Source of the DNA: an uncultured Muribaculaceae bacterium
GTDB taxonomy: Bacteria > Bacillota_I > Bacilli_A > RF39 > UBA660
Length of the DNA stretch: 43,680 nucleotides
Assembly: GCA_964440475.1 (NCBI GenBank)
Contig: CAYTSC010000002.1
Location: 11,140 to 54,819 of the forward strand
Direction of reading: 5' to 3'
Part shown: positions 1-38,869 of the stretch, piece after piece
How positions within the stretch are numbered: position 1 is the stretch's first letter
Layout of the letters: every line of letters starts with the position of its first letter
Translations under genes and position numbers: made by a program
The notes under the pieces: model-generated
Databases searched by the model: none
Told to the model about the DNA's origin: nothing
The model's input: only the letters and a program-made list of their open reading frames with translations

Positions 1-1046
1 TGTAATGGATCTATTGCATCATACTCAATTGCATATGCGTATTTAGTTATTTTTGCATTTTCTAAGCCAATAAGACTATGAACCATTTTTTCTTGAATAT
101 CCTCTGGCATACTAGTTGATAGTCCTTGTAAATACATTTCATCATAATAAATACTTTCTGGTTCCAAAAACAATTGATGTCTTTCTTTTTCTTTAAACCT
201 AACTATTTTATCTTCTACAGATGGACAATATCTTGGCCCTATACCGGTAACATATCCACCATACATACTTGATTTTTCTAAATTATCATTTATTATTTTA
301 TGGGTTTTTTCATTTGTATAAAACAAATAACAACTCTCTTGCTTTTCTATGTCATATGGTTTATTATCATCAAAACTAAAATATAGATGCCTTTTTTCCC
401 CTTTTTCCTCTTTTAATTTAGAAAAATCCACTGTTTTTCGATCAATTCTTGGTGGGGTTCCTGTTTTTAACCTTTGAATTTCAAATCCTAACTCTTTTAA
501 TTTATCACTCAAAAAATTAGATCTTTTTTCTCCGTGAGGACCCGAATCTTTTTTACTATCACCAATTAATATTGTACTTTTTAAATATGTTCCAGTTGTT
601 AAGATAAGTATTTTACAATTAAATTTCTCGTTTTTAGAGCTAATTACACCTTTAACTATTTTATTTTCAATAATAATATCTTCAATCATGGTTTCAATTA
701 AATCTAAATTCTTTACACTCTTAATAAATTTTAACATTTCTTTTGAATAGGTTATTTTATCTGCTTGAGCTCTTAAAGATTGAACAGCGGGACCCTTTCC
801 GGAATTTAACATCTTTATTTGAATATGACTTTTATCTGCAATTTTCCCCATTATACCACCAAGGGCATCTATTTCTCTTACAACGATTCCTTTTGCGGTT
901 CCTCCAATTGAAGGATTACAAGCTAAATCTGCAATATTTTCAATATTGCTTGTTAATAACGCTGTTTTATATCCTAATTTACTACTTGCATATGCTGCTT
1001 CACAACCCGCGTGACCGGCACCTACAACAATTACATCATAATCCAT
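1..1046 (-). CDS. mnmG: tRNA uridine 5-carboxymethylaminomethyl modification enzyme MnmG (GidA), N-terminal part; the 3' end lies beyond the window edge
   Basis: Not in the ORF track because it runs off the window. Reverse-strand translation from the ATG (complement of 1044-1046) reads MDYDVIVVGAGHAGCEAAYASSKLGYKTALLTSN... (FAD-binding GxGxxG) and stays open to position 1. A GGAAGA SD lies upstream. It sits directly downstream of mnmE. Confidence 0.9.
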   Translation of the reverse strand, partial: MDYDVIVVGAGHAGCEAAYASSKLGYKTALLTSNIENIADLACNPSIGGTAKGIVVREIDALGGIMGKIADKSHIQIKMLNSGKGPAVQSLRAQADKITYSKEMLKFIKSVKNLDLIETMIEDIIIENKIVKGVISSKNEKFNCKILILTTGTYLKSTILIGDSKKDSGPHGEKRSNFLSDKLKELGFEIQRLKTGTPPRIDRKTVDFSKLKEEKGEKRHLYFSFDDNKPYDIEKQESCYLFYTNEKTHKIINDNLEKSSMYGGYVTGIGPRYCPSVEDKIVRFKEKERHQLFLEPESIYYDEMYLQGLSTSMPEDIQEKMVHSLIGLENAKITKYAYAIEYDAIDPL

Positions 1047-2451: not shown

Positions 2452-3081
2452 TTATTCATCTTCCTCTTCTGTTTCTTTATATTTTATTACTACATATCTA
2501 TTAGGTTCTTCTCCCTCACTTGTTGTATAGATATTTTTAAAATTGGTTAAACAATTATGAACAATTCTTCTTTCGTAAGAATTCATATTTTCTAAAGATG
2601 CATCCATCTTTGTGTTAACAACTTCTTTAGCTGTTCTTTTTGCTAAACTTTCGAGATAGTTTTCCTGTTTTTCTTTATAATTTTCTACATCTAAGGTAAA
2701 GAACGGATACATTCCAACTTCATTGTAAATAGTTTGCTTTATTATCATTTGCAATGACTCAAGAGTTTTACCATTTTTTCCTATCAATATAGAATTCCTA
2801 TCTGAATACATTGTTATATTTATTTTGTTATTTCTAATTTTCGTTTCAAAGGTAGTTTGAATATCCATTTGATTTAATATAACAATTAATTTTTCTTTAA
2901 TAAATTCACTTATATCAGATAGCTTTGCAACCTCAATTTTTATTCCACCTGATTTAAATAGACCACCTTTAGTTTCTTCCTTTTTATATACTATGTCTGT
3001 TTCTTTCAAGTTTAATGTTTCGTATGCCAATGTAAGTGCATCTTCTAAAGTTTTTCCTTCAAATGTTTCTATATTTATCAT
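2452..3081 (-). CDS. jag: Jag/KhpB-type RNA-binding protein (KH + R3H domains)
   Basis: 209 aa with a KH-like core (ILIGKNGKTLESLQ) and an R3H region (SYERRIVHNCL). Conserved position between yidC and mnmE. Confidence 0.85.
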   Translation of the reverse strand: MINIETFEGKTLEDALTLAYETLNLKETDIVYKKEETKGGLFKSGGIKIEVAKLSDISEFIKEKLIVILNQMDIQTTFETKIRNNKINITMYSDRNSILIGKNGKTLESLQMIIKQTIYNEVGMYPFFTLDVENYKEKQENYLESLAKRTAKEVVNTKMDASLENMNSYERRIVHNCLTNFKNIYTTSEGEEPNRYVVIKYKETEEEDE

Positions 3082-3083
3082 TT

Positions 3084-4016
3084 TTATTGCCCCCTTTTCA
3101 TAATAATACTTTGAATAGCTCCAAATGCATTAGTTGTAATCCAATATAATGCTATTGCTGATGGTAGGCTAAATGATGCAAATGTTATAAATACTAACAT
3201 AAATATAACCATGTATTTTGATTGTTTTTCTTGATCTGATTGGCCTCCCGAAGTTGCTTTTAACGTATCTCTCATTGAAAAATATGTTGATAATATAATT
3301 AGTAATACTAATAATATATAAATATAATTTCCACTTTTTATACCTACTAAAGGATTAGTTCCCAATTGTAATGTAAGCAACTTTTCCTCAAAAATTGCTG
3401 GTACTCTATTTATTGCTTCTAAGAAAGCAAAAAACAACGGTAATTGGAGCAATGATACAAGACAACCTGACATTGGATTAATACCATGCTTTTTATATAT
3501 TAGACTGGTTTCCTGACTTTTAGCTAATATATCTTCTCTTTCGTTTTTATCTTTGTATTTTTTTTCAATTTTATCTAATTCTGGTCTCATTTCTTTTAAT
3601 TTTTGAGATTGTTCTAAAGTTTTTTTAGATAATGGCATAAGAGCTATTCTAATTAGTAAACCTATTAACATCACTGATATACCATAGTTTTTTACAAAAT
3701 TTCCAACTGTTAATATTGTCCAAGCTAATGGCTTTACAAAAACAGATTCCCAAATTCCGACATATTTTAGATCATTAGGTTTAAAATTATTACACGCTGG
3801 TAACTTATCAAGTTTAACTGCCAACTTATCAGAGTTTTCTTCATATATTTTAATAAGTTCCTTATTTGTTGGTTTACATAATATGTTAGAAGTAATATTT
3901 TGACCTGTCTTTTCATATTTTATTATTTTTTTATTATCATCGCTTAAATATTTTGTACAACCGCTTATTAATATAAACATTACTAATAAAAGCATTATCT
4001 TAGTTTTCTTTTTCAT
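3084..4016 (-). CDS. yidC: membrane protein insertase YidC/SpoIIIJ (lipoprotein type)
   Basis: 310 aa with an N-terminal lipobox (LISGC), multiple TM segments and a basic C-terminus. Located downstream of rnpA as in Firmicutes. Confidence 0.9.
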   Translation of the reverse strand: MKKKTKIMLLLVMFILISGCTKYLSDDNKKIIKYEKTGQNITSNILCKPTNKELIKIYEENSDKLAVKLDKLPACNNFKPNDLKYVGIWESVFVKPLAWTILTVGNFVKNYGISVMLIGLLIRIALMPLSKKTLEQSQKLKEMRPELDKIEKKYKDKNEREDILAKSQETSLIYKKHGINPMSGCLVSLLQLPLFFAFLEAINRVPAIFEEKLLTLQLGTNPLVGIKSGNYIYILLVLLIILSTYFSMRDTLKATSGGQSDQEKQSKYMVIFMLVFITFASFSLPSAIALYWITTNAFGAIQSIIMKRGQ

Positions 4017-4329
4017 TTAATTTCTCCTTTAACATTTTTTCTATTTCAAAAAAAGTAGCTAATTTACTTCTTTCTTTAACAATTATAATATAATCTCGCT
4101 TCTTTTGGAACAAGTTTTTATTTAAAGTTATAATATTCCAATATTTTCTTTTGTATTTATTTCTTATTACTGCATTTCCTATTTTTTTACCCACAGCAAG
4201 TCCAAACTTTGGTTGTATTTCTTCCTTTTCAATGAAAAACATGTTAAAAAAAGGAGATTTAATTATATTTCCCTTTTCGATTATCTTATTAAAATATATA
4301 TTATCTTTTATTTTTTGATGTTTTTTCAT
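4000..4329 (-). CDS. rnpA: ribonuclease P protein component
   Basis: The ORF track gives 4000..4341. The ATG at 4327-4329 (MKKHQKIKDN...) is preceded by a GAGGA SD that contains the upstream ATG, so the shorter start is preferred. Small basic protein overlapping the yidC start by 17 nt. Confidence 0.8.
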   Translation of the reverse strand: MKKHQKIKDNIYFNKIIEKGNIIKSPFFNMFFIEKEEIQPKFGLAVGKKIGNAVIRNKYKRKYWNIITLNKNLFQKKRDYIIIVKERSKLATFFEIEKMLKEKLNEKEN

Positions 4330-4424
4330 TTTAATCCTCATCCCGATAAATACACATTAATTATATATTATTACAAACATTTAAGCAATTAATTAAATCT
4401 TTTATTTTTTTAAACATATAAACA

Positions 4425-4584
4425 TGTTCAAAAAAACATTGTTGAAATTTATTTTGTTCAAATTGTTGAAAACTTTTTTAACTTAGGTTATTATATAAAA
4501 TATCATTTTTTTATTGTTCATAACTTGTTTATTGTTGATTATTAAACATTATATTGCTTTTATTATTAACTAAATTGTTGTAAA
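4425..4584. promoter_or_regulatory. putative oriC / dnaA-promoter region with same-strand TGTT-core DnaA-box-like repeats
   Basis: Repeats: TGTTCAAAA 4425, TGTTGAAAT 4440, TGTTCAAAT 4455, TGTTGAAAA 4464, TGTTCATAA 4515, TGTTGATTA 4533, TGTTGTAAA 4576. The best copies match TGTGGATAA (reverse complement of TTATCCACA) at 7/9, and all have T instead of G at position 4. No box with 1 mismatch or fewer is present. Confidence 0.35.
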
Positions 4585-4617
4585 ATGAATGTAGAAAAAA
4601 TAGTTGTGGGGTGTTTT

Positions 4618-5991
4618 ATGAGTAACGATTTATTATGGCAAAATTTTATAAACGATATTGAAAATAAAGTTTCTTTCGTGTCTTTTAATACATGGTTTAA
4701 AGATATAAAACTCCATAGTATAGATATTAGTACAGTTAAAATAGAAGTCCCTATAAACTTTAATAAAAAACATCTAGAAAAAAATTATAATGAAATTGTT
4801 GAAGACATATTTCTGAATTTAACTGGGAAAAATTATATTATTGAATTTATTAGTGGAGAAGAATTACAAAATATTAATAATAATGAAGATTTAAGCGAGG
4901 AAAATGATTTTTTTTCTAATGATAATATTGGGGAAAATTTTAATTCAAATCTAAATCCTAGTTATACTTTTGACAATTTTATGATAGGTGAATCTAATAA
5001 ATTTGCCTATTCTTCAGCTTTAACTGTTGCACAAAATCCTGGTAATTTATATAATCCTTTGTTCATACATGGGAAAAGCGGTTTAGGGAAAACTCATTTA
5101 ATGCAAGCAATTGGTAATTATATTATTAGTAATTCTAATTTAAAAGTTTTATACGTAACTAGCGATCAATTCAGAGAGGAATTTGTTGATATGAATACTA
5201 CAAATTCAAATAACAATAATAATATTGATTATATGAATGCTTTTAAAAGTAAATATAGAAATATTGATGTTCTAATAATTGATGATATACAATTTTTTAG
5301 CGGTGCAGAAAAGACTAGACAAGAATTTTTTCATACATTTGAATATCTAAAAAATGCCAATAAACAAATCATTATTAGTTCCGATCGTTCTCCTGATGAT
5401 CTAAAATTTTTAGAAGATAGATTAAAAACAAGATTTAGTTGGGGATTAACGGTAAATGTTTTTCCTCCAGAACATGCTTTAAAAATGAAAATTATAAAAG
5501 ATAAAGTAAAAAATTTAGAAGTATTAAAATTTATTGATGATGATGTTATAGAATACATTGCAAATAATAGTGAAAACGATGTTAGACATTTAGAAGGTTC
5601 AATCACAAGATTAATGGCATATTCAGCAATGATGAATTACAAAAATATTAATTTAGAGTTTGCAATTGAAGCATTACAAGATCATTTAAAGAAAAATAAT
5701 TATTTAAAGAGTAATATAAGTAAAATACAAAAAGCCGTTGCAAATTATTATGGAATTACCATAGAGGATATGAAAAGTAAAAAAAGAAACGCTGAAATTA
5801 ATTATCCAAGACAAATAGCAATATATCTATCACGAATGATTACTGATGAAACTACAAATAAAATAGGTTTAGAATTCGGAGGTAAAAGTCATTCAACAGT
5901 TATTCATTCATGTCAAAAAATAGCAGATGAATTAAAAAATAATCCAGAATTAAATGTAATGATTAATGAAATAAAAAATAAAATTAATTAA
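4618..5991 (+). CDS. dnaA: chromosomal replication initiator protein DnaA
   Basis: AAA+ Walker A GKSGLGKTHL, Walker B LIIDDIQF, and C-terminal DNA-binding signature GGKSHSTVIHS. The ORF opens at 4585, but ATG 4618 (MSNDLLWQNF...) follows a GGGGTG SD and matches typical DnaA N-termini. Confidence 0.95.
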   Translation: MSNDLLWQNFINDIENKVSFVSFNTWFKDIKLHSIDISTVKIEVPINFNKKHLEKNYNEIVEDIFLNLTGKNYIIEFISGEELQNINNNEDLSEENDFFSNDNIGENFNSNLNPSYTFDNFMIGESNKFAYSSALTVAQNPGNLYNPLFIHGKSGLGKTHLMQAIGNYIISNSNLKVLYVTSDQFREEFVDMNTTNSNNNNNIDYMNAFKSKYRNIDVLIIDDIQFFSGAEKTRQEFFHTFEYLKNANKQIIISSDRSPDDLKFLEDRLKTRFSWGLTVNVFPPEHALKMKIIKDKVKNLEVLKFIDDDVIEYIANNSENDVRHLEGSITRLMAYSAMMNYKNINLEFAIEALQDHLKKNNYLKSNISKIQKAVANYYGITIEDMKSKKRNAEINYPRQIAIYLSRMITDETTNKIGLEFGGKSHSTVIHSCQKIADELKNNPELNVMINEIKNKIN

Positions 5992-6019
5992 TAACAATTT
6001 AATTAACAATCTAATAACA
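5988..6019 (+). repeat. three tandem ~11-bp units (TTAATAACA / TAATTAACA / CTAATAACA cores) at the dnaA stop, in the dnaA-dnaN spacer
   Basis: The sequence reads ttaataacaattt aattaacaatc taataacataa. The cores at 5988, 6000 and 6011 are the reverse orientation of the TGTT-core motif found upstream of dnaA. Confidence 0.3.
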
Positions 6020-6130
6020 TAAAAAAGAATACCTTAAAACTGATTTTATCAAGGTTTGATGAGTTTTAAACATTATGAACCTTATAATAAAAGAAAATAA
6101 TAGAATTAAATAAAGAAAGAAGGAATAAAA

Positions 6131-7249
6131 ATGAAATTTTCTATTAACAAAAACTTACTATTTGAAAATCTACATTATGTAACAAAGGCAATATCACCTA
6201 AAAATATTATACCCGTATTAAATGGTATAAAATTTGAATTAACGAAGAAAGGTTTAGAATTAACAGCAAGTAACTCTGAATTAATAGTTTCTACTTTAAT
6301 AATTAAAAATGATATTAAAAATATTGAACAAGAAGGATTAGTTATTATTCAAAGTAATAATATATTAGATATTATTAAAAAAATGCCATCTGAAATTATT
6401 AACTTTGAACTTATTGAAGAAGCAAAAATATTAATTTCTACTGATAATAGTAAATATTATTTAAATTGTTTAAACTCTGATGATTATCCTATAATTAAGT
6501 TCGAAGAAAGTGAAACACCTATTAATATAGATGGGGATTTATTAAAAAAGATCATTAATCAAACTGTATTTGCTATATCAACACAAGAGTCAAGACCATT
6601 ATTAACAGGAATAAATTTTAAAATTAATGGTAATATTTTAGATTGCATTGCAACAGATTCATATAGATTAGCAAAAAAAACAATTAAATTAGATGTAATA
6701 ATAGAAGATTTAGTAAATATAGTTATTCCAGGAGAAAACATAAAAAAACTTATTGATATGATAACAGATGACAAAAGTGTAGAAATGCACATATTTAATA
6801 ATAAAATAATTTTTAAATATAAAAATATTATTTTTAAATCTAATTTACTAAATGGAACATATCCTGATACTACAAATTTAATACCAACAGAATTTGAAAT
6901 AATATTTAATTCTAATCTAAATGATTTTTATAATTCTATTGACAGAGCTTCATTATTAACACAAAATAAAGAAAAAAATACTGTAAGAATGATAACTTCT
7001 AAAAATAATTTATCTGTAACATCACTTTCGTCTGAATATGGAAAAGTAGAAGATACCATTTCTATTGAAAAAAATGATTCTAAAGATATTGAAATATCAT
7101 TTAGTTCTAAATATATGATGGAAGCATTAAGATCATTTGAAGATTTAAATATATTAGTATTGTTAAATAGCGATGTAAAACCAATAATTATTAAAAGTGA
7201 AACAGACGAAACATTAATTCAACTAATTTTGCCAATTAAAACATATTAA
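6131..7249 (+). CDS. dnaN: DNA polymerase III beta sliding clamp
   Basis: 372 aa in the conserved position after dnaA. Has a clamp-like N-terminus (MKFSINKNLL...AISPKNIIPVLNGIKF) and the C-terminal LILPIKTY. Confidence 0.95.
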   Translation: MKFSINKNLLFENLHYVTKAISPKNIIPVLNGIKFELTKKGLELTASNSELIVSTLIIKNDIKNIEQEGLVIIQSNNILDIIKKMPSEIINFELIEEAKILISTDNSKYYLNCLNSDDYPIIKFEESETPINIDGDLLKKIINQTVFAISTQESRPLLTGINFKINGNILDCIATDSYRLAKKTIKLDVIIEDLVNIVIPGENIKKLIDMITDDKSVEMHIFNNKIIFKYKNIIFKSNLLNGTYPDTTNLIPTEFEIIFNSNLNDFYNSIDRASLLTQNKEKNTVRMITSKNNLSVTSLSSEYGKVEDTISIEKNDSKDIEISFSSKYMMEALRSFEDLNILVLLNSDVKPIIIKSETDETLIQLILPIKTY

Positions 7250-7356: not shown

Positions 7357-7806
7357 ATGAATGAATATGAAATTAATATAGAAACACTAGCGATAGTGCC
7401 ATTTACATCACATAAATCAAAAGTTTATGAAAATGATAAAGTATTTATTGTTAATAAATCAGTAAATAAAATAATGGATGCTAGTTGTGAATTTTTTGGT
7501 AGTTCACTTGAAGGAAGACAAAAAGGAACTTCTAAGTTAATCGGAGTTACACATAAAGCTCCAATTATTGTAGAAGAAAGTAAAGAAATAATCTTTTTTC
7601 CAACAATGTCTCCAAGAGTAGAAACATGTGCTTGGATTTCATTAAAAAACATTGATAAAATATTAAAAAGAAATGAAAAGAATTTTATAGTTTTTAAAAA
7701 TAATACTATACTAGAATTGGATATTTCTTATGGAATAATCAATAATCAAGTTTTAAGAGCAACAAGATTAGAATCAGTATTAAGAAATAGAAAATTGATT
7801 GATTAA
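7357..7806 (+). CDS. comK: ComK-family protein (competence transcription factor homologue)
   Basis: 149 aa, collinear with B. subtilis ComK landmarks as I recall them: SCEFFGSSLEGRQKGT, HKAPIIV, IFFPTMSPRVETCAWIS, ISYGIINNQVLRA. Has its own SD (AGGGGG) and is flanked by terminators. Confidence 0.8.
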   Translation: MNEYEINIETLAIVPFTSHKSKVYENDKVFIVNKSVNKIMDASCEFFGSSLEGRQKGTSKLIGVTHKAPIIVEESKEIIFFPTMSPRVETCAWISLKNIDKILKRNEKNFIVFKNNTILELDISYGIINNQVLRATRLESVLRNRKLID

Positions 7807-7849
7807 TATCTACAAAAAACTTTATTTAAAACGATTTTAATGATATAAT

Positions 7850-7895
7850 AATTAATAGGTATAGGAGTACTAAAATACCTATTAATTTTATTTTA
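7850..7895 (+). terminator. rho-independent terminator after the comK-like gene
   Basis: 13-bp stem AATTAATAGGTAT (7850-7862) / ATACCTATTAATT (7875-7887) with a 12-nt loop, followed by T-rich sequence. Confidence 0.7.
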
Positions 7896-7915
7896 AGACG
7901 TTTTAGGGGGTAATA

Positions 7916-9004
7916 ATGGAAATATTGAATTTAAAACTAACGAATTTTAGAAATTTTAATAAAATAAAATTAAATTTTTCCAGTAACTTAAATTTAATAG
8001 TGGGTAATAATGGCTCCGGAAAGACTAACTTAATAGAATCTATAAATGTTTTAGCCTTAACAAGAACATTCAGAAATGTGTATGACTCAATATTAATAAA
8101 AGATGCAGAAGAAAAATCCATAATTGAAGCTGAAATAAAAACAAAAATAATTAATAAATTTAAAATAGAAATAACAAAAGAAGGAAAAAAAGCCCAAATC
8201 AATAGTACTAAAATAACAAAATTAAGTGATTATATATCAAAAATATTAATTGTTACATTTAGTTCAAATGATTTAAAGCTCATAAAAGATAGTCCAAGTA
8301 TTAGAAGAAAACTACTAAATATAGAAATATCACAAATTAATAATGTTTATTTGAAATATTTAAATGAATATAATAAAGTTCTTAAACAAAGAAATGCATA
8401 TTTAAAAACTTTATATACAAATAAAACACAAAGTTATGAATATTTACATATTTTAACAAATAAATTAATAGATTATGGATTAATAATTTATAATGAAAGA
8501 GTAAATTTTATTAATCTAATAAATGAAAATATAAGTGTAATTTATGAACAAATAACAAAAACAAAATTTTTATCAGTAAAATATAAATCAGATTATGAAA
8601 ATTATAATAAAGAAAAATTATTTAATAAATATGAAAAACAAATCGAAAAAGATATTATTTTAGGAAAAACCTCAATCGGAATTCATACAGATGATATAGA
8701 ATTTAATATAGAAAATAAAAATTTAAGAGAATATGGTTCAGAAGGTCAACAAAAAAACGCTATTATAGCATTGAAATTATCAGAAATATTAATAATAAAA
8801 AAACTAAAAAATGAAAATCCTATATTTTTAATTGATGATTTATATAGTGAGTTGGATAAATATAAAATAAGAAATATACTAGATTATTTAGATCCAAAAT
8901 TACAAACATTTATAACAGTTACAGATTTAAATAAGGTAAGTAAAAAAATAAGAGAAAATGCAAAAATTTATTATATAAAAGATGGAGAAGTGATAGAAAA
9001 ATGA
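7916..9004 (+). CDS. recF: DNA replication and repair protein RecF
   Basis: Walker [13 protein letters not shown]-like signature GSEGQQK, Walker B IFLIDD. Conserved position; ATGA overlap with gyrB. Confidence 0.95.
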
Positions 9005-10924: not shown

Positions 10925-13456
10925 ATGAATAAAGAAGAAAATATGAATAATGAAATTGACGCTAGAGAAAATATTATTACACATGATTTAAATGAAGAAA
11001 TGAGAACATCTTTCTTAGATTATTCAATGAGTGTAATTATTTCTCGTGCAATACCAGATGTTAGAGATGGATTAAAACCGGTTCATAGAAGAATACTATA
11101 TACTATGTATGAAGAAGGAATGACTCCAGAAAGAAAACATCAAAAAAGTGCTAATGCTGTTGGAGCTATAATGGGTCATTATCATCCACATGGAGATACG
11201 GCAATTTATGATTCATTAGTAAGAATGGCACAAGATTTTACATACCGTCATATGTTAATTGATGGACATGGTAACTTTGGATCTATAGATGGTGATGGTG
11301 CTGCAGCTTATCGTTATACCGAAGCGAGGCTTTCTAAAATTTCAATGGAAATTTTGAGAGATTTAAATAAAAACACTGTTGATTTTAAAGATAACTATGA
11401 TGGTCAAAGAAGAGAACCGGAAATACTTCCGAGTAGATTCCCTAATATATTAGTAAATGGTAATATGGGAATTGCTGTAGGTATGGCTACAAATATCCCG
11501 CCACATAACCTAGGTGAAGCAATTGATGCTTGTGTTGCATTTATTGATAATAATGATATAACAATTGAAGAATTGATGAATTATATTAAAGGACCAGATT
11601 TTCCTACTTCAGGATCAATACTAGGGAATAGTGGTATAAAAAAAGCATTTGAAACAGGAAGAGGATCAATTACAATAAGATCTAAAGTTGAAATTGAAGA
11701 AACAGATAATAAATCAAGAATAATAATTACTGAATTGCCATATCAAGTTAATAAAAAGTCACTAATAAAGAGAATTGCAGAATTAGTAAGAGATAAAGTA
11801 ATTGATGGTATTACAAATTTAAATGATGAATCAGCTTTAGAAGGAATAAGAATAGTAATAGACATTAGAAGAGATGCAAATGCAAACGTTATTCTTAACA
11901 ATTTGTATAAATTAACATCACTGCAAGTTTCTTATGGTATAAACTTCTTAATGTTAGCTGACGGTAGGCCAAATACAATGAATCTAAAGGAAATTTTAGA
12001 TCATTACGTAAATTACCAAAAAACAATTATTGTAAGAAGAACAAAATTTGATTTAGAAAAATCACAGGCAAGAGAACATATTTTAGAAGGTTTAAAAATA
12101 GCTTTAGATAATATAGATGAAGTGATAGCTATTATTAAAACAGCTAAAACAGATGAGGAAGCAACGTCTAATTTAATAAGTAGATTTGGTTTGACCAATG
12201 AACAAACCCAAGCAATTTTAGAAATGAAATTAAGAAGAATAACTGGTCTTGAAAGAGGAAAAGTAGAAGATGAATTATCAGAACTATTAAAATTAATAGC
12301 AGATCTAAAAGATATTTTATCAAGAGAAGAAAGAGTTTTAGAAATAATAAAAACTGAAATGATTGATATTAAAAATAAATATGCAGACAAAAGAAAAACA
12401 ATAATTGACATGACAGCCATTGAGTATATTGATGATGAATCATTAATAGAAGAACAAAACAGTATTATGACGCTAACAAACAAAGGATATATTAAGAGAA
12501 TCCCGCTTGATGCCTATAGAACTCAAAACCGAGGCGGAGTTGGAGTAAAAGGAATGACAACAAATGAAGAGGATTTTGTCGAAATAATGTTAAATTTATC
12601 AACACATGATTATGTATTGTTTTTTACAAATAAAGGAAAAGTATACAGATTAAAAGGATATGAAATACCTGAATATAGTAGACAAGCAAAAGGAATTCCA
12701 ATTATTAACCTACTACAAATAGATAAAGATGAAATGATTAATTCCGTAATTAAGTATACTCCAGAAGAGGAAAACCATAAAAACACTTTAGTATTTGTTA
12801 CAAAATATGGAATAATTAAAAAAACAGATGTTAGCGAATTCGATAGTATAAGAGCAAACGGAAAAATTTGTATAACTCTAAAAGAAAATGATGAATTAAT
12901 TTCTGTAAAAGCAACTGATGGAGAAAGTTTAATTATTTTAGGCTCTAGTTCAGGAAGAATGGTTGTGTTTGACGAATCGGAAGTAAGATCTATGGGAAGA
13001 ACTGCAACCGGCGTTAGAGGAATTAATCTAGATGATTCTACTTGTATAGGAGCCGAAGTTGCAAAGGCAACAGATAACATACTAATAGTAACTGAAAAAG
13101 GTTATGGTAAAAAAACAAATCTAAGCGAATATAGAAAAACTAAAAGAGGTAGCAAAGGAGTAAAAGCACTTAATATAACCGAAAAGAATGGAAATATTGC
13201 CTCATTTAGAAAAGTTGACGATGATTTTGACGTTATGATAATTACAAACTCAGGAATGATGATTAGATTACCAATAAATCAGATATCACAACTTGGCAGA
13301 GTAACACAAGGAGTAAGATTAATAAACTTAAAAGAAGAACAACTTGTTTCAACTATAAGCATTATTAAGGAACCAGAAGAAACAGAAGAAGCAGAAGAAG
13401 TAGAAGAATATGAGGAACAAAATGTAAAAGAAACAGAAGAAGCAGAAGAAAATTAA
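10925..13456 (+). CDS. gyrA: DNA gyrase subunit A
   Basis: Active-site region AAAYRYTEARL, QRDR-like HPHGDTAIYDSLVRMAQ, beta-pinwheel CTD, and an acidic tail. Confidence 0.97.
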   Translation: MNKEENMNNEIDARENIITHDLNEEMRTSFLDYSMSVIISRAIPDVRDGLKPVHRRILYTMYEEGMTPERKHQKSANAVGAIMGHYHPHGDTAIYDSLVRMAQDFTYRHMLIDGHGNFGSIDGDGAAAYRYTEARLSKISMEILRDLNKNTVDFKDNYDGQRREPEILPSRFPNILVNGNMGIAVGMATNIPPHNLGEAIDACVAFIDNNDITIEELMNYIKGPDFPTSGSILGNSGIKKAFETGRGSITIRSKVEIEETDNKSRIIITELPYQVNKKSLIKRIAELVRDKVIDGITNLNDESALEGIRIVIDIRRDANANVILNNLYKLTSLQVSYGINFLMLADGRPNTMNLKEILDHYVNYQKTIIVRRTKFDLEKSQAREHILEGLKIALDNIDEVIAIIKTAKTDEEATSNLISRFGLTNEQTQAILEMKLRRITGLERGKVEDELSELLKLIADLKDILSREERVLEIIKTEMIDIKNKYADKRKTIIDMTAIEYIDDESLIEEQNSIMTLTNKGYIKRIPLDAYRTQNRGGVGVKGMTTNEEDFVEIMLNLSTHDYVLFFTNKGKVYRLKGYEIPEYSRQAKGIPIINLLQIDKDEMINSVIKYTPEEENHKNTLVFVTKYGIIKKTDVSEFDSIRANGKICITLKENDELISVKATDGESLIILGSSSGRMVVFDESEVRSMGRTATGVRGINLDDSTCIGAEVAKATDNILIVTEKGYGKKTNLSEYRKTKRGSKGVKALNITEKNGNIASFRKVDDDFDVMIITNSGMMIRLPINQISQLGRVTQGVRLINLKEEQLVSTISIIKEPEETEEAEEVEEYEEQNVKETEEAEEN

Positions 13457-13477: not shown

Positions 13478-13510
13478 GAAAAATATTTCCCGGGAAATAT
13501 TTTTCTTTTA
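13478..13510 (+). terminator. gyrA terminator: 28-bp perfect palindrome plus T-rich tail
   Basis: GAAAAATATTTCCC|GGGAAATATTTTTC (13478-13505) followed by TTTTA. The core is identical to a Noc-binding-site palindrome. Confidence 0.7.
13484..13499. promoter_or_regulatory. Noc-binding-site (NBS)-type palindrome, copy 1
   Basis: TATTTCCCGGGAAATA matches the B. subtilis NBS consensus ATTTCCCGGGAAAT at 14/14, and its extended 16-bp form at 16/16. Confidence 0.6.
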
Positions 13511-13519
13511 ATCAAAAGA

Positions 13520-13535
13520 TGTTACACGTGTAACA
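13520..13535. promoter_or_regulatory. parS: parS centromere-like site, copy 1 (intergenic)
   Basis: TGTTACACGTGTAACA matches TGTTNCACGTGAAACA at 15/16. It is a perfect palindrome, extended to 18 bp as ATGTTACACGTGTAACAT. A ParB gene is present in the window. Confidence 0.8.
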
Positions 13536-13543
13536 TTGATATT

Positions 13544-13559
13544 TATTTCCCGGGAAATA
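13544..13559. promoter_or_regulatory. Noc-binding-site (NBS)-type palindrome, copy 2
   Basis: Identical 16-mer TATTTCCCGGGAAATA, ending 5 bp upstream of the -35 of the SRP RNA promoter. Confidence 0.6.
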
Positions 13560-13564
13560 AAATA

Positions 13565-13592
13565 TTGATTTTAATAGATAAAGTGGTATAAT
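13565..13592 (+). promoter_or_regulatory. sigma-A type promoter of the SRP RNA gene
   Basis: -35 TTGATT (13565-13570), 16-nt spacer, extended -10 TGGTATAAT (13584-13592). Confidence 0.65.
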
Positions 13593-13598
13593 CAATTT

Positions 13599-13675
13599 GT
13601 GCAACAAACATATTGGAAACTGGTCAGGATTGGAAAATAGCAGCCATAACAATTAATGTTTGTGTGCACTTTTTG
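13599..13675 (+). ncRNA. ffs: small (4.5S-like) signal recognition particle RNA
   Basis: Long hairpin GTGCAACAAACAT...ATGTTTGTGTGCAC enclosing the conserved domain IV sequence GGUCAGGauuGGAAaauAGCAGCC (GGAA tetraloop). Followed by TTTTTG and located next to tadA/dnaX as in Firmicutes. Confidence 0.8.
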
Positions 13676-13689
13676 TTTGAAGGAGTAAT

Positions 13690-14124
13690 ATGGAAATAAA
13701 ATATATAGAAAAATGTCTAGATTTAGCTGAAAAATCATATAAATATGAAGATTTTCCTGTGGGAGCGATTATAGTTTATAATAATAAAGTAGTAGGAAAA
13801 GGATACAATAAAAGAAATGTTACACGTGTAACATATGATCATGCAGAAATAATTGCAATTAGACAGGCTAATAAAAAATTAAAAACATGGAGGCTTAATG
13901 ATTGTGAAATGTATGTTTCGCTAGAGCCGTGTAAAATGTGTGAAAAAGTAATTAAAGAATCAAGAATAAAAAAAGTATATTACTTAGTTTCTAGAAATGT
14001 TGATAAAGAACAATATAAAGGAACGATAGTAGAAAAGATATGTGAAAAAAACAATGATATTGACCAAATAAAAATTAAAGAATATAAGGAAAGTTTAAAG
14101 CAGTTTTTTGCTTATAAAAGATAA
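13690..14124 (+). CDS. tadA: tRNA-specific adenosine deaminase
   Basis: 144 aa with CDA zinc motifs HAE (DHAEIIAI) and PCxxC (LEPCKMCEKVI). Conserved neighbourhood with ffs and dnaX. Confidence 0.9.
   Translation: MEIKYIEKCLDLAEKSYKYEDFPVGAIIVYNNKVVGKGYNKRNVTRVTYDHAEIIAIRQANKKLKTWRLNDCEMYVSLEPCKMCEKVIKESRIKKVYYLVSRNVDKEQYKGTIVEKICEKNNDIDQIKIKEYKESLKQFFAYKR
13818..13833. promoter_or_regulatory. parS: parS centromere-like site, copy 2 (inside tadA)
   Basis: Identical TGTTACACGTGTAACA (18-bp identity across 13817-13834), in frame in tadA and encoding NVTRVTY. Confidence 0.75.
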
Positions 14125-37209: not shown

Positions 37210-37995
37210 ATGGCGAAAGTTATATCATTAGTAAACCAAAAAGGTGGTGTCGGTAAAACAACGACAAGTATTAATTTGGCTGCATCATTAGGTAAATTTG
37301 GTAAACTTACATTACTAATAGATTTGGATCCACAAGGTAATTCCTCAACAGGATTGGGAATTAGTAAGGGAGATTATGAAAAAACAGCCTATGACTTAAT
37401 TAATGGAACAGCAACTGCTGGAGATGTAATTATAAAAACAAGATTCGATAACTTATATGTGGTTCCTGCTTCGATAAATATGGCTGGTTTAGATGTTGAA
37501 TTAATTCAAAAAGCCTATACAAACGAATCTTTTAAATTTCAAGAACAATTAAGAAACGGCTTAGAAGATGTTAGAGATAAATTTGATTATATTATTATAG
37601 ATTGTCCTCCTTCATTAGGTTTACTATCTACAAATGCACTGGTTGCAAGTGACTCAGTAATAATTCCTGTTCAATGTGAATTTTTTGCATTAGAAGGAAT
37701 AACTCAACTACTAAATACAATAATTATGACTCAAGCAAAGTTAAATCCAAAATTAACTATTGAAGGTGTTTTATTAACATTGCTAGATGCGAGAACTAAT
37801 CTAGGTTTAGAAGTGGTTGAAGAAGTAAGAAAATACTTTAAAGAGAAAGTATTTGATACAATTATTCCAAGATTAATAAGATTAGTGGAAGCTCCCAGCC
37901 ATGGAGAACCAATTGGTGAGTATGATCCAAATAGTAGAGCTAATGAAGCATATATGAACTTAGCAAAGGAAGTGATTGAGCGTAATGGAAAATAA
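37210..37995 (+). CDS. soj: chromosome partitioning ATPase ParA/Soj
   Basis: Deviant Walker A NQKGGVGKTT, DCPPSLG, followed by parB. Confidence 0.95.
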   Translation: MAKVISLVNQKGGVGKTTTSINLAASLGKFGKLTLLIDLDPQGNSSTGLGISKGDYEKTAYDLINGTATAGDVIIKTRFDNLYVVPASINMAGLDVELIQKAYTNESFKFQEQLRNGLEDVRDKFDYIIIDCPPSLGLLSTNALVASDSVIIPVQCEFFALEGITQLLNTIIMTQAKLNPKLTIEGVLLTLLDARTNLGLEVVEEVRKYFKEKVFDTIIPRLIRLVEAPSHGEPIGEYDPNSRANEAYMNLAKEVIERNGK

Positions 37996-38869
37996 TAGAA
38001 AAGCACTTGGAAAAGGATTAGATCAATTATTCGGTGGCGAGACGTTTGATTTTAATCAACTAGAAAAAAACATAGTAGAAAGTGCTAATAAAAATGATAT
38101 TTTAGAAATTAACTTAGATGAAATACGAAGCAATCCATATCAACCAAGAAAACACTTCGATGAAAAATCATTAAATGAATTGGCCGAATCTATTAAGGAA
38201 AATGGTCTAATTCAACCAATTATTGTTAAAAAAAGTATAAAAGGCTACGAACTGATAGCTGGCGAAAGAAGAGTAAGGGCATCAAAAATAGCTGGTTTAA
38301 ATAAAATTTCTGCTATAGTTCGTGATTTTACTGATGAAGAAATGATGGAACTAGCGGTGCTAGAAAATGTTCAAAGAGAAGATTTATCACCAATAGAAGA
38401 AGCAGAAGGATATTTTAGAATAATCAATAAAACAAATATTACCCAGGAAGAGTTAGCAAAAAAAGTGAGTAAAAATAGGACTCATATAACAAATATGCTC
38501 GGTTTATTAAGATTACCTTTAACTGTTAGAAATCAAGTTAACAATAAAGAATTATCGATGAGCCATGCTAGAATATTAAGTAAATTATCTGATGAAAATC
38601 AAATAGTTAATTTAGCAAATAAAGTAGTTAAAGAAAATTTATCTGTTCATGAATTAGAAAATTTAAGTAAAGGCGATAATTTTGAACGCGTGGTAAAAAT
38701 TTCTAGAAAACCAAATTTACCGGCAGAGTATATGGTTTTTCAAAGTATGCTAAGAGAAAAATTTGGACTTAAAGTAAATATAAAAAGCAATAAAATAGAA
38801 ATACCATTTAACACCAAAGAGGAGTTAGCATCAATCTTAAAAACTATTGATGTGGATGCAGATGAATAA
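37985..38869 (+). CDS. parB: chromosome partitioning protein ParB/Spo0J
   Basis: N-terminal ALGKGLDQLF, CTPase box IAGERRVRAS, HTH KNRTHITNMLGLLRLP, and LSMSHARIL. ATG 37985 is preferred over TTG 37976. Confidence 0.93.
   Translation: MENNRKALGKGLDQLFGGETFDFNQLEKNIVESANKNDILEINLDEIRSNPYQPRKHFDEKSLNELAESIKENGLIQPIIVKKSIKGYELIAGERRVRASKIAGLNKISAIVRDFTDEEMMELAVLENVQREDLSPIEEAEGYFRIINKTNITQEELAKKVSKNRTHITNMLGLLRLPLTVRNQVNNKELSMSHARILSKLSDENQIVNLANKVVKENLSVHELENLSKGDNFERVVKISRKPNLPAEYMVFQSMLREKFGLKVNIKSNKIEIPFNTKEELASILKTIDVDADE

Follow-up and report, generated by a model that had tools for sequence, protein, structure and literature searches.

ParB and its paralogue Noc nucleate at short palindromes, parS for the former and the Noc-binding site (NBS) for the latter, where they bind cytidine triphosphate (CTP), close to clamps and slide over kilobases of DNA (PMC8429893, PMC7053999). 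Noc of Staphylococcus aureus spreads over 8-10 kb around its sites (PMC5540599). The difference in specificity between the two proteins has been traced by Jalal et al. (2020, PMC7383237) to four positions, which in Noc are Q173, K179, K184 and R201; Q173 reads A1 and R201 reads C6, given a permissive K at 179 or 184. In the same study G201 (Caulobacter numbering) was reported to be absolutely conserved in extant ParBs. Here we describe a locus at which sites for both kinds of protein stand side by side. It lies in a stretch of 43,680 nucleotides (the window) of contig CAYTSC010000002.1, positions 11,140 to 54,819, from an uncultured low-GC member of the Bacilli, and occupies the spacer that runs from gyrA past ffs, the gene for the small signal recognition particle (SRP) RNA, into tadA.

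We suggest that this gyrA-ffs-tadA spacer is probably an origin-proximal centromere island, the loading zone for two paralogous ParB-family proteins. The ParB encoded in the window would nucleate on two parS palindromes and a Noc-family paralogue encoded next to rsmG, with Q/K/N/R at the specificity positions, on two NBS palindromes. By analogy with Spo0J and Noc, each dimer would then close to a CTP-bound clamp, leave its site and slide over the neighbouring kilobases, and one stretch of DNA, about 9 kb from dnaA, would come to be covered by both proteins. Selection may keep NBS and parS together, within 2-3 kb of each other across the clade and interleaved in the lineage of the window. We infer the binding, the CTP-dependent spreading and any functional interplay of the two proteins. 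That one short locus offers loading sites for two paralogous clamps had been proposed in an earlier, sequence-only reading of the window, and the sites, the genes and the specificity residues described below support it.

NBS and parS palindromes between gyrA and tadA

All four sites, two NBS and two parS, fall inside 350 bp (Table 1). The NBS are two copies of one palindrome, with core ATTTCCCGGGAAAT, and this 16-mer is the same as the core of GGATATTTCCCGGGAAATATCC, the oligonucleotide used as NBS in the biochemistry of Bacillus subtilis Noc (PMC8429893), an identity that the sequence-only reading had missed. The parS variant of the window is also that of L010, the nearest relative with the spacer in hand. 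By an estimate from base composition (27% G+C), an exact NBS 16-mer is expected by chance about 1e-5 times per window. The hexamer CCCGGG had been said to be confined to the two NBS, and it does occur at only these two places in the 43,680 bases. Over the whole window a search for the NBS 16-mer with up to three mismatches gave a single additional match, and no further match with two or fewer mismatches to either the NBS or the parS motif was found anywhere in it. The sites are exact and non-random.

Table 1. Features of the window (coordinates count from its first base)
Feature	Position	Strand	Remarks
NBS1, TATTTCCCGGGAAATA	13484-13499	n/a	exact 16-bp Noc-binding-site palindrome
NBS2, second exact TATTTCCCGGGAAATA	13544-13559		ends 5 bp short of the -35 of the presumed SRP RNA promoter
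parS1, TGTTACACGTGTAACA	13520-13535		perfect palindrome; 15/16 match to TGTTNCACGTGAAACA
parS2, second exact TGTTACACGTGTAACA	13818-13833		within tadA coding sequence (amino acids ...NVTRVT...)
28-bp perfect palindrome around NBS1 (GAAAAA-NBS-TTTTTC)	13478-13505		T-run after it
mnmG, 5' part	1-1046	-	rsmG and the 429-aa Noc-like gene come next beyond the left window edge
dnaA	4585-5991
gyrA	10925-13456	+	Pfam; left boundary of the spacer
Promoter-like TTGATT-16-TATAAT with TG extension	13565-13592	+	consensus match only; presumed SRP RNA promoter
SRP RNA (small, ffs)	13590-13681	+	Rfam RF00169, 58.4 bits against a gathering score of 40; right boundary of the site cluster
tadA-type deaminase gene	13690-14124	+	Pfam; carries parS2
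parA (soj-type ATPase)	37210-37995	+	Pfam
parB	37985-38869	+	sole ParB-family gene in the window; adjoins parA; presumed reader of parS

The sequence-only reading had placed two NBS with a parS between them in the spacer between gyrA and the SRP RNA gene. The coordinates of all three sites and the boundaries of the spacer are confirmed, as are the start-to-start spacings of 36 bp from NBS1 to parS1 and 24 bp from parS1 to NBS2, which leave gaps of 20 bp and 8 bp between the 16-bp sites. The 15/16 match of parS1 and its perfect palindromy were likewise correctly described. The inventory was incomplete, in that parS2 inside tadA had been overlooked. Exact parS inside tadA were also seen in related loci, at three sites.

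The same reading took NBS1 for the core of the gyrA terminator, and saw protein binding as coupled to gyrA termination. The 28-bp perfect palindrome is real, and its RNA fold has an energy of -11 kcal/mol (z = -2.9) with a T-run after it; a consensus terminator scan did not call it as a terminator. To judge from 324 unique clade sites that contain the 12-mer TTTCCCGGGAAA, the flanks of NBS1 are a general feature. In these sites the T and A that extend the 12-mer to the 16-mer show 99-100% conservation. The next three to four positions on either side have A (on the other arm T) in 80-86% of cases, giving an extended conserved palindrome of about 24 bp, AAAWTATTTCCCGGGAAATAWTTT. The 16-mer itself is almost invariant, and the sites include those in recF and dnaX, with the same flanks. 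Because such A/T flanks are general and occur also at sites inside genes, the 28-bp palindrome is a property of the binding site and not evidence for a terminator. The supposed coupling to a gyrA terminator had therefore been over-read, since A-rich and T-rich palindromic flanks are present also at NBS that lie within genes. The NBS1 hairpin may nonetheless terminate gyrA weakly. A reading of the CCCGGG hairpins as the generic terminator stem of this genome was rejected: NBS with the same flanks lie inside recF and dnaX, and 33 of the 67 exact NBS in the relatives introduced below are inside coding sequences.

A wider form of this explanation sees in the CCCGGG palindromes hairpins of RNA or DNA, or else operators for some unrelated regulator, and takes their identity with the NBS for a coincidence. 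We regard this as scarcely credible. It can draw on the folded palindrome and T-run directly after gyrA, and on a second promoter-like match at 13536-13563, TTGATA-16-TAAAAT, in whose spacer NBS2 exactly falls. That match may be due to chance, because promoter-like matches in the region are no more numerous than in shuffled sequences. Against the hairpin explanation, the terminator scan gives no call, NBS2 is not followed by a T-run, the same 16-mers with the same A/T flanks recur in the recF and dnaX reading frames of many species, and the gene for a protein with NBS-type specificity residues lies in the vicinity. The proximity of NBS2 to the SRP RNA promoter, which had also been pointed out from the sequence, is confirmed, the promoter being known from a consensus match only. 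The Rfam match for the SRP RNA starts at 13590 and overlaps the -10 hexamer of this presumed promoter (13587-13592); the 5' end of the mature RNA is probably a few bases further downstream.

The predicted readers of the two sites

The window holds a single ParB-family gene, of ParB type, as had been noted from the sequence, and a second gene of the family was predicted next to rsmG, to the left of the window. This second gene was found in L210 (ENA contig ERZ4240871 NODE_690, 54,722 nt), a contig of the same organism that was reached by a dnaA look-up and shares 99.93-99.99% identity with the window across 16 kb. To the left of the window's first base, L210 carries the rest of mnmG, then rsmG (3852-4565) and a ParB-family gene of 429 amino acids (2523-3812). 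In window coordinates this gene would extend from about -2823 to -1534, some 1.5 kb left of the window start. A ParB-family gene holds the same rsmG-adjacent position in about 40 related genomes. The prediction of a second ParB-family gene beside rsmG holds. Other searches for this flank gave nothing further: exact look-ups of mnmE and tadA had no match, that of jag led only to contigs of at most 9 kb, the 39-mer at the left end of the window had no exact copy among metagenome contigs, a search with the partial mnmG gave a best match of 79% identity, and a homologue search with the L008 paralogue returned no match from the same species. In L210, mnmG (4562-6392) and jag (7798-8497) are each called as two genes. 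At jag the BLAST segments share about 20 bases of the window and skip about 50 bp of L210, suggesting an insertion of about 70 bp in L210. This probably reflects the assembly or a difference between strains.

At the four specificity positions the paralogue has Q173, K179, N184 and R201, close to the Q/K/K/R of Noc, where the window ParB has R/M/R/S. The combination Q/K/N/R is present in 119 of the 120 closest homologues. It fits the rule of Jalal et al. (PMC7383237), in that Q173 and R201 are accompanied by K179 and a K at either 179 or 184 suffices. The paralogue scores 275.6 bits against the NCBIfam model TIGR04285 (nucleoid_noc), compared with 227 bits for the window ParB, and its last 46 residues match the final stretch of that model (positions 210-255). 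Against solved structures, a close homologue from L010 gives 200 bits with Geobacillus Noc, 188 with B. subtilis Noc and 166 with Spo0J. The motifs GERRYKA and ENLQR could be recognised in the paralogue by eye. Judged by its sequence, the paralogue is nearer Noc than ParB, and it is a Noc-family protein with predicted NBS specificity rather than a "nucleoid-occlusion protein".

A long linker rich in acidic residues (26% D/E) is inserted in the paralogue and adds a median of about 86 residues. Short Phe-rich motifs stand in this linker, NKFFNFLEDE.ANM in many relatives and a repeated FNPF in L078. They could be partner- or membrane-binding elements that replace the N-terminal helix of Noc.

The ParB of the window has Spo0J as its best match among solved structures (6sdk, 198 bits, against 141 bits for Noc), and its N-terminal motif ALGKGLDQLF resembles the usual N-terminal peptide of ParBs. 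Its specificity positions are R173, M179, R184 and S201; R173 is that expected of a ParB, and G201 is replaced, the local sequence being LSMSHARIL compared with LSMGHGRTL in Spo0J. The recognition region reads LGLL in place of LRLL. S201 is not peculiar to this protein, as about half of 88 ParBs of the clade have it. The parAB genes lie about 24 kb from the parS sites, and apart from noc and rsmG. Function at parS is probably retained despite this residue, because S201 is tolerated in parS-specific variants, among which it was found by Jalal et al. (PMC7383237).

The residue at 201 has a bearing on a further explanation, which is that a resident ParB of relaxed specificity binds both palindromes and that the CCCGGG elements are auxiliary ParB sites. 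In most dual-specificity variants position 201 was T or S, and 179 or 184 was K or R (PMC7383237); the window ParB has S201 and R184. That G201 is reportedly invariant in extant ParBs, yet replaced by S in about half of those of the clade, can be counted on the same side. We nevertheless think this explanation very unlikely. S201 also occurs among parS-specific variants, and in the available part of the supplementary text of Jalal et al. (2020) neither RMRS nor QKNR is listed. Conservation of the NBS 16-mer extends to the single base, as would be expected of a site with a specific reader. Q173 and R201 belong to a dedicated paralogue from the same genome, with QKNR fixed clade-wide, and because of this protein a relaxed ParB is no longer needed. 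The sequence-only reading had left the choice between a Noc encoded elsewhere and a relaxed ParB; for the former a Noc-like gene has been found, and the latter is no longer needed, even though S201 is a residue of dual-specificity variants.

Conservation and co-localisation in related genomes

Relatives were sampled as 80 dnaN neighbourhoods, with one genome per species, which together with the window make up 1.37 Mb of origin-proximal DNA. This sample contains 160 exact parS and 67 exact NBS. With few exceptions the parS are found between gyrA and tadA, and the spacer has parS in 45 of the 48 species for which it is complete, with two or more in 43 of the 48. In ten of the 48, the window included, the spacer has NBS as well. 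The window and its two nearest relatives with a complete spacer have two NBS and two parS each. In the five relatives tested, the SRP RNA gene closes the spacer at the same position.

The NBS are concentrated around the parS cluster. Thirteen of the 67 lie within 40 bp of a parS, against an expectation of 0.7 under uniform placement and 2.5 if placement is limited to unannotated DNA (maximum of 7 in 2000 simulations). On a larger scale, 41 of the 67 are within the 4-kb interval that contains all 160 parS, many of them in dnaX, about 2 kb from the island. No NBS was found in the remaining 43 kb or so of the window, nor in a scan of three 21-kb parAB regions of relatives (63 kb). The NBS inside genes are in recF and dnaX. 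In recF the site has a conserved position near the 5' end as annotated in L050 (L050 12464), and dnaX often has a pair of sites at a distance of 90 bp (L050 19652 and 19742).

Metagenome contigs were scanned with the pattern ATTTCCCGGGAAAT-N6-36-GTTNCACGTGNAAC, for which the listed matches give a lower bound and not a frequency. At least 120 NBS-parS composites were obtained, and about 117 among the matches listed are the gyrA-tadA locus, on contigs of 21-31% G+C. Many of the composites among these matches are more elaborate than that of the window, with three to eight NBS interleaved with three to nine parS. One exception (L194 1445-2395) belongs to a different organism with 49% G+C. It has four parS, one of them with one mismatch, and one exact NBS in the 950 bp that separate a noc-like gene (Q/K/Q/R) from soj-spo0J. 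With NBS and parS together in L194, composites are not confined to the low-GC clade.

In unique spacers, the distances between neighbouring NBS and parS peak at 24-26, 35-36 and 46-47 bp, and the 24 and 36 bp of the window fall on these peaks. The arrangement can also be inverted. The order NBS-36-parS-24-NBS of the window has its counterpart in parS-36-NBS-24-parS in L095 (196-271), and L102 (13110-13300) has parS-37-NBS-25-parS twice; the scaffold ends just before the -35 of ffs. Such swapping of identities on one scaffold suggests either conversion of parS and NBS into each other in place, or selection on position rather than on the identity of the site.

It may be that both sites are bound by their own proteins and that the juxtaposition has no function. 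Both need proximity to the origin, and the spacer is scarce non-coding DNA in a compact genome; tandem duplication, and a distance of two bases per half-site between parS and NBS, would then scatter the two types among each other. The differences in order and spacing between species are in keeping with this, as are the roughly 80% of species with a parS cluster that have no spacer NBS, the duplication of modules as units in L063, L091, L102 and L109, the tandem parS arrays of L075 and L085, and the weakness of the helical-phase signal after clustering. The two arrays are distinctive in themselves: downstream of gyrA, L075 (17437-17894) has nine parS of one mismatch each, mostly 32-33 bp apart and in two blocks, and L085 (17346-17745) has seven exact parS at a spacing of exactly 64 bp. 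We consider a functionless juxtaposition rather unlikely. Non-coding DNA is evidently not required, as 33 of the 67 NBS are inside genes, and yet the NBS are concentrated within 2-3 kb of the parS island. NBS are enriched near parS even against the null restricted to intergenic DNA, at least 117 independent metagenome contigs keep the composite at the same locus, and the 36/24 scaffold recurs with the identities swapped.

There are several points that weigh against a centromere island loaded by both proteins. With respect to the sites, tight interleaving is not obligatory, since only about 20% of the sampled species have a spacer with NBS and the order and spacing of the sites differ. A spacer of about 230 bp that has to hold both parS and ffs almost forces any NBS to be near a parS. 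The related genomes are non-independent samples, and the periodicity of about 10.5 bp in NBS-parS distances is marginal (p of about 0.04 after conservative clustering), which leaves helical phasing of the two sites tentative. With respect to the protein, position 184 of the paralogue is N and not the near-invariant K of Noc. Its score against TIGR04285 is below the cut-off of 315 bits, and with the linker deleted it rises to 287.6 bits, with model positions 1-255 covered. The 10-residue amphipathic membrane-targeting helix at the N-terminus of Noc is absent from it. Its start, MNIESQVLEIYVNDIIPNRFQPR, has a Shine-Dalgarno sequence upstream, an in-frame stop 13 codons upstream and the end of rsmG 39 nt upstream; in an alignment with Noc, residue 5 of a close homologue falls at about residue 26, and throughout the clade there are 14-21 residues before PNRFQPR, compared with about 39 in B. 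subtilis Noc.

The sequence-only reading had spoken of a nucleoid-occlusion clamp. NBS-type specificity residues are indeed present in the paralogue, but the name is not established, because the protein has no N-terminal membrane helix and scores below the NCBIfam cut-off. Once loaded, it may organise the origin or join in segregation instead of acting in classical nucleoid occlusion. A more specific possibility, which we hold only tentatively, is that the Noc lineage of this large clade of uncultured gut and rumen Bacilli of low GC is a second centromere-binding CTP clamp and not a membrane-tethering nucleoid-occlusion factor. Without a helix, and with Phe-rich motifs in an acidic linker and sites concentrated at the parS island, preferentially about 25, 36 or 47 bp from parS, it would form a hybrid origin complex with ParB, and could represent either an ancestral intermediate between ParB and Noc or a repurposed Noc.

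Genomic setting and comparison with known systems

The window is a replication-origin region. The order is mnmG (partial), mnmE, jag, yidC and rnpA, these five on the minus strand, followed by dnaA, dnaN, comK, recF, gyrB and gyrA, the spacer, and then tadA, dnaX, ybaB, recR and onward; further to the right are tilS, ftsH, parA, parB, a DUF951 gene, abgT and ychF. The distance from dnaA to the sites is about 7.5-9 kb. The comK gene (7357-7806; Pfam ComK, E = 3.5e-42) lies between dnaN and recF, and has the same position in every related locus for which gene order was listed. In the genome collection the nearest relative has a dnaN identity of 84%. The nearest relatives are gut and rumen metagenome-assembled genomes labelled Bacilli, Tenericutes, Candidatus Caccenecus or Candidatus Faecenecus, or mislabelled Muribaculaceae. 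Those titled "uncultured Muribaculaceae bacterium" (L008-L011, L023, L038 and L063) carry a low-GC Bacilli origin region, and their labels look wrong, or the bins contaminated.

ParB and Noc, the textbook paralogues among CTP-switch clamps, discriminate between sites with a difference of two bases per half-site, and in this locus such sites are 8-20 bp apart. Strict discrimination would have to operate in the cell, and the locus is a substrate for testing whether clamps loaded side by side block, ignore or help one another. A Noc-type protein with predicted NBS specificity but without the helix separates that specificity from membrane activity, the pair of activities by which Noc is usually defined, and may reveal how Noc evolved from ParB or a new role at the origin. 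The ParBs of the clade break the reported invariance of G201, and in this group of poorly known gut bacteria the centromere would be recognisable by its parS/NBS island downstream of gyrA. ParABS and Noc-NBS are known as parts. Their conserved interleaving at one locus, the apparent focusing of NBS at the centromere and a Noc-type protein without the helix appear to be new, in that no description of any of them was found in the literature searched, the coverage of which was partial and gives weak evidence of novelty; the sequence-only reading had likewise known of no composite locus.

Among described systems, Noc-NBS of B. subtilis and S. aureus is the nearest to one half of the locus. It shares the 16-bp site, a ParB-family gene adjoining rsmG (gidB), the residues Q173, K179 and R201, the GERR and ENLQR motifs and a Noc-like C-terminal domain. 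It differs in that the paralogue described here has no amphipathic helix, N184 in place of K, an acidic linker and a score below the TIGR04285 cut-off, and in that the NBS of the clade have a conserved site of about 24 bp and are concentrated beside the parS island in the sampled DNA, whereas those of Noc-NBS are scattered. The other half resembles ParABS of the Firmicutes (Spo0J/parS) in its parS near the origin, clustered as they are in many bacteria, in having parA with parB, and in the R173 and ALGKGLDQLF of the ParB. Here the differences are the interleaving of parS with sites for a paralogue, S201, LGLL, the parS variant, and parAB at a distance of about 24 kb and separate from noc and rsmG.

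Two further systems may be compared with the locus as a whole. RacA-ram is reportedly an origin-tethering or origin-organising system of B. subtilis sporulation, with sites concentrated in the origin region beside ParB. The proteins of RacA-ram and RicO are not ParB paralogues and have no NBS, and the likeness is in logic only. In the RicO system of S. aureus (bioRxiv 10.64898/2026.03.06.710092), as in the locus described here, a second DNA-binding protein has its sites concentrated at the origin beside ParB.

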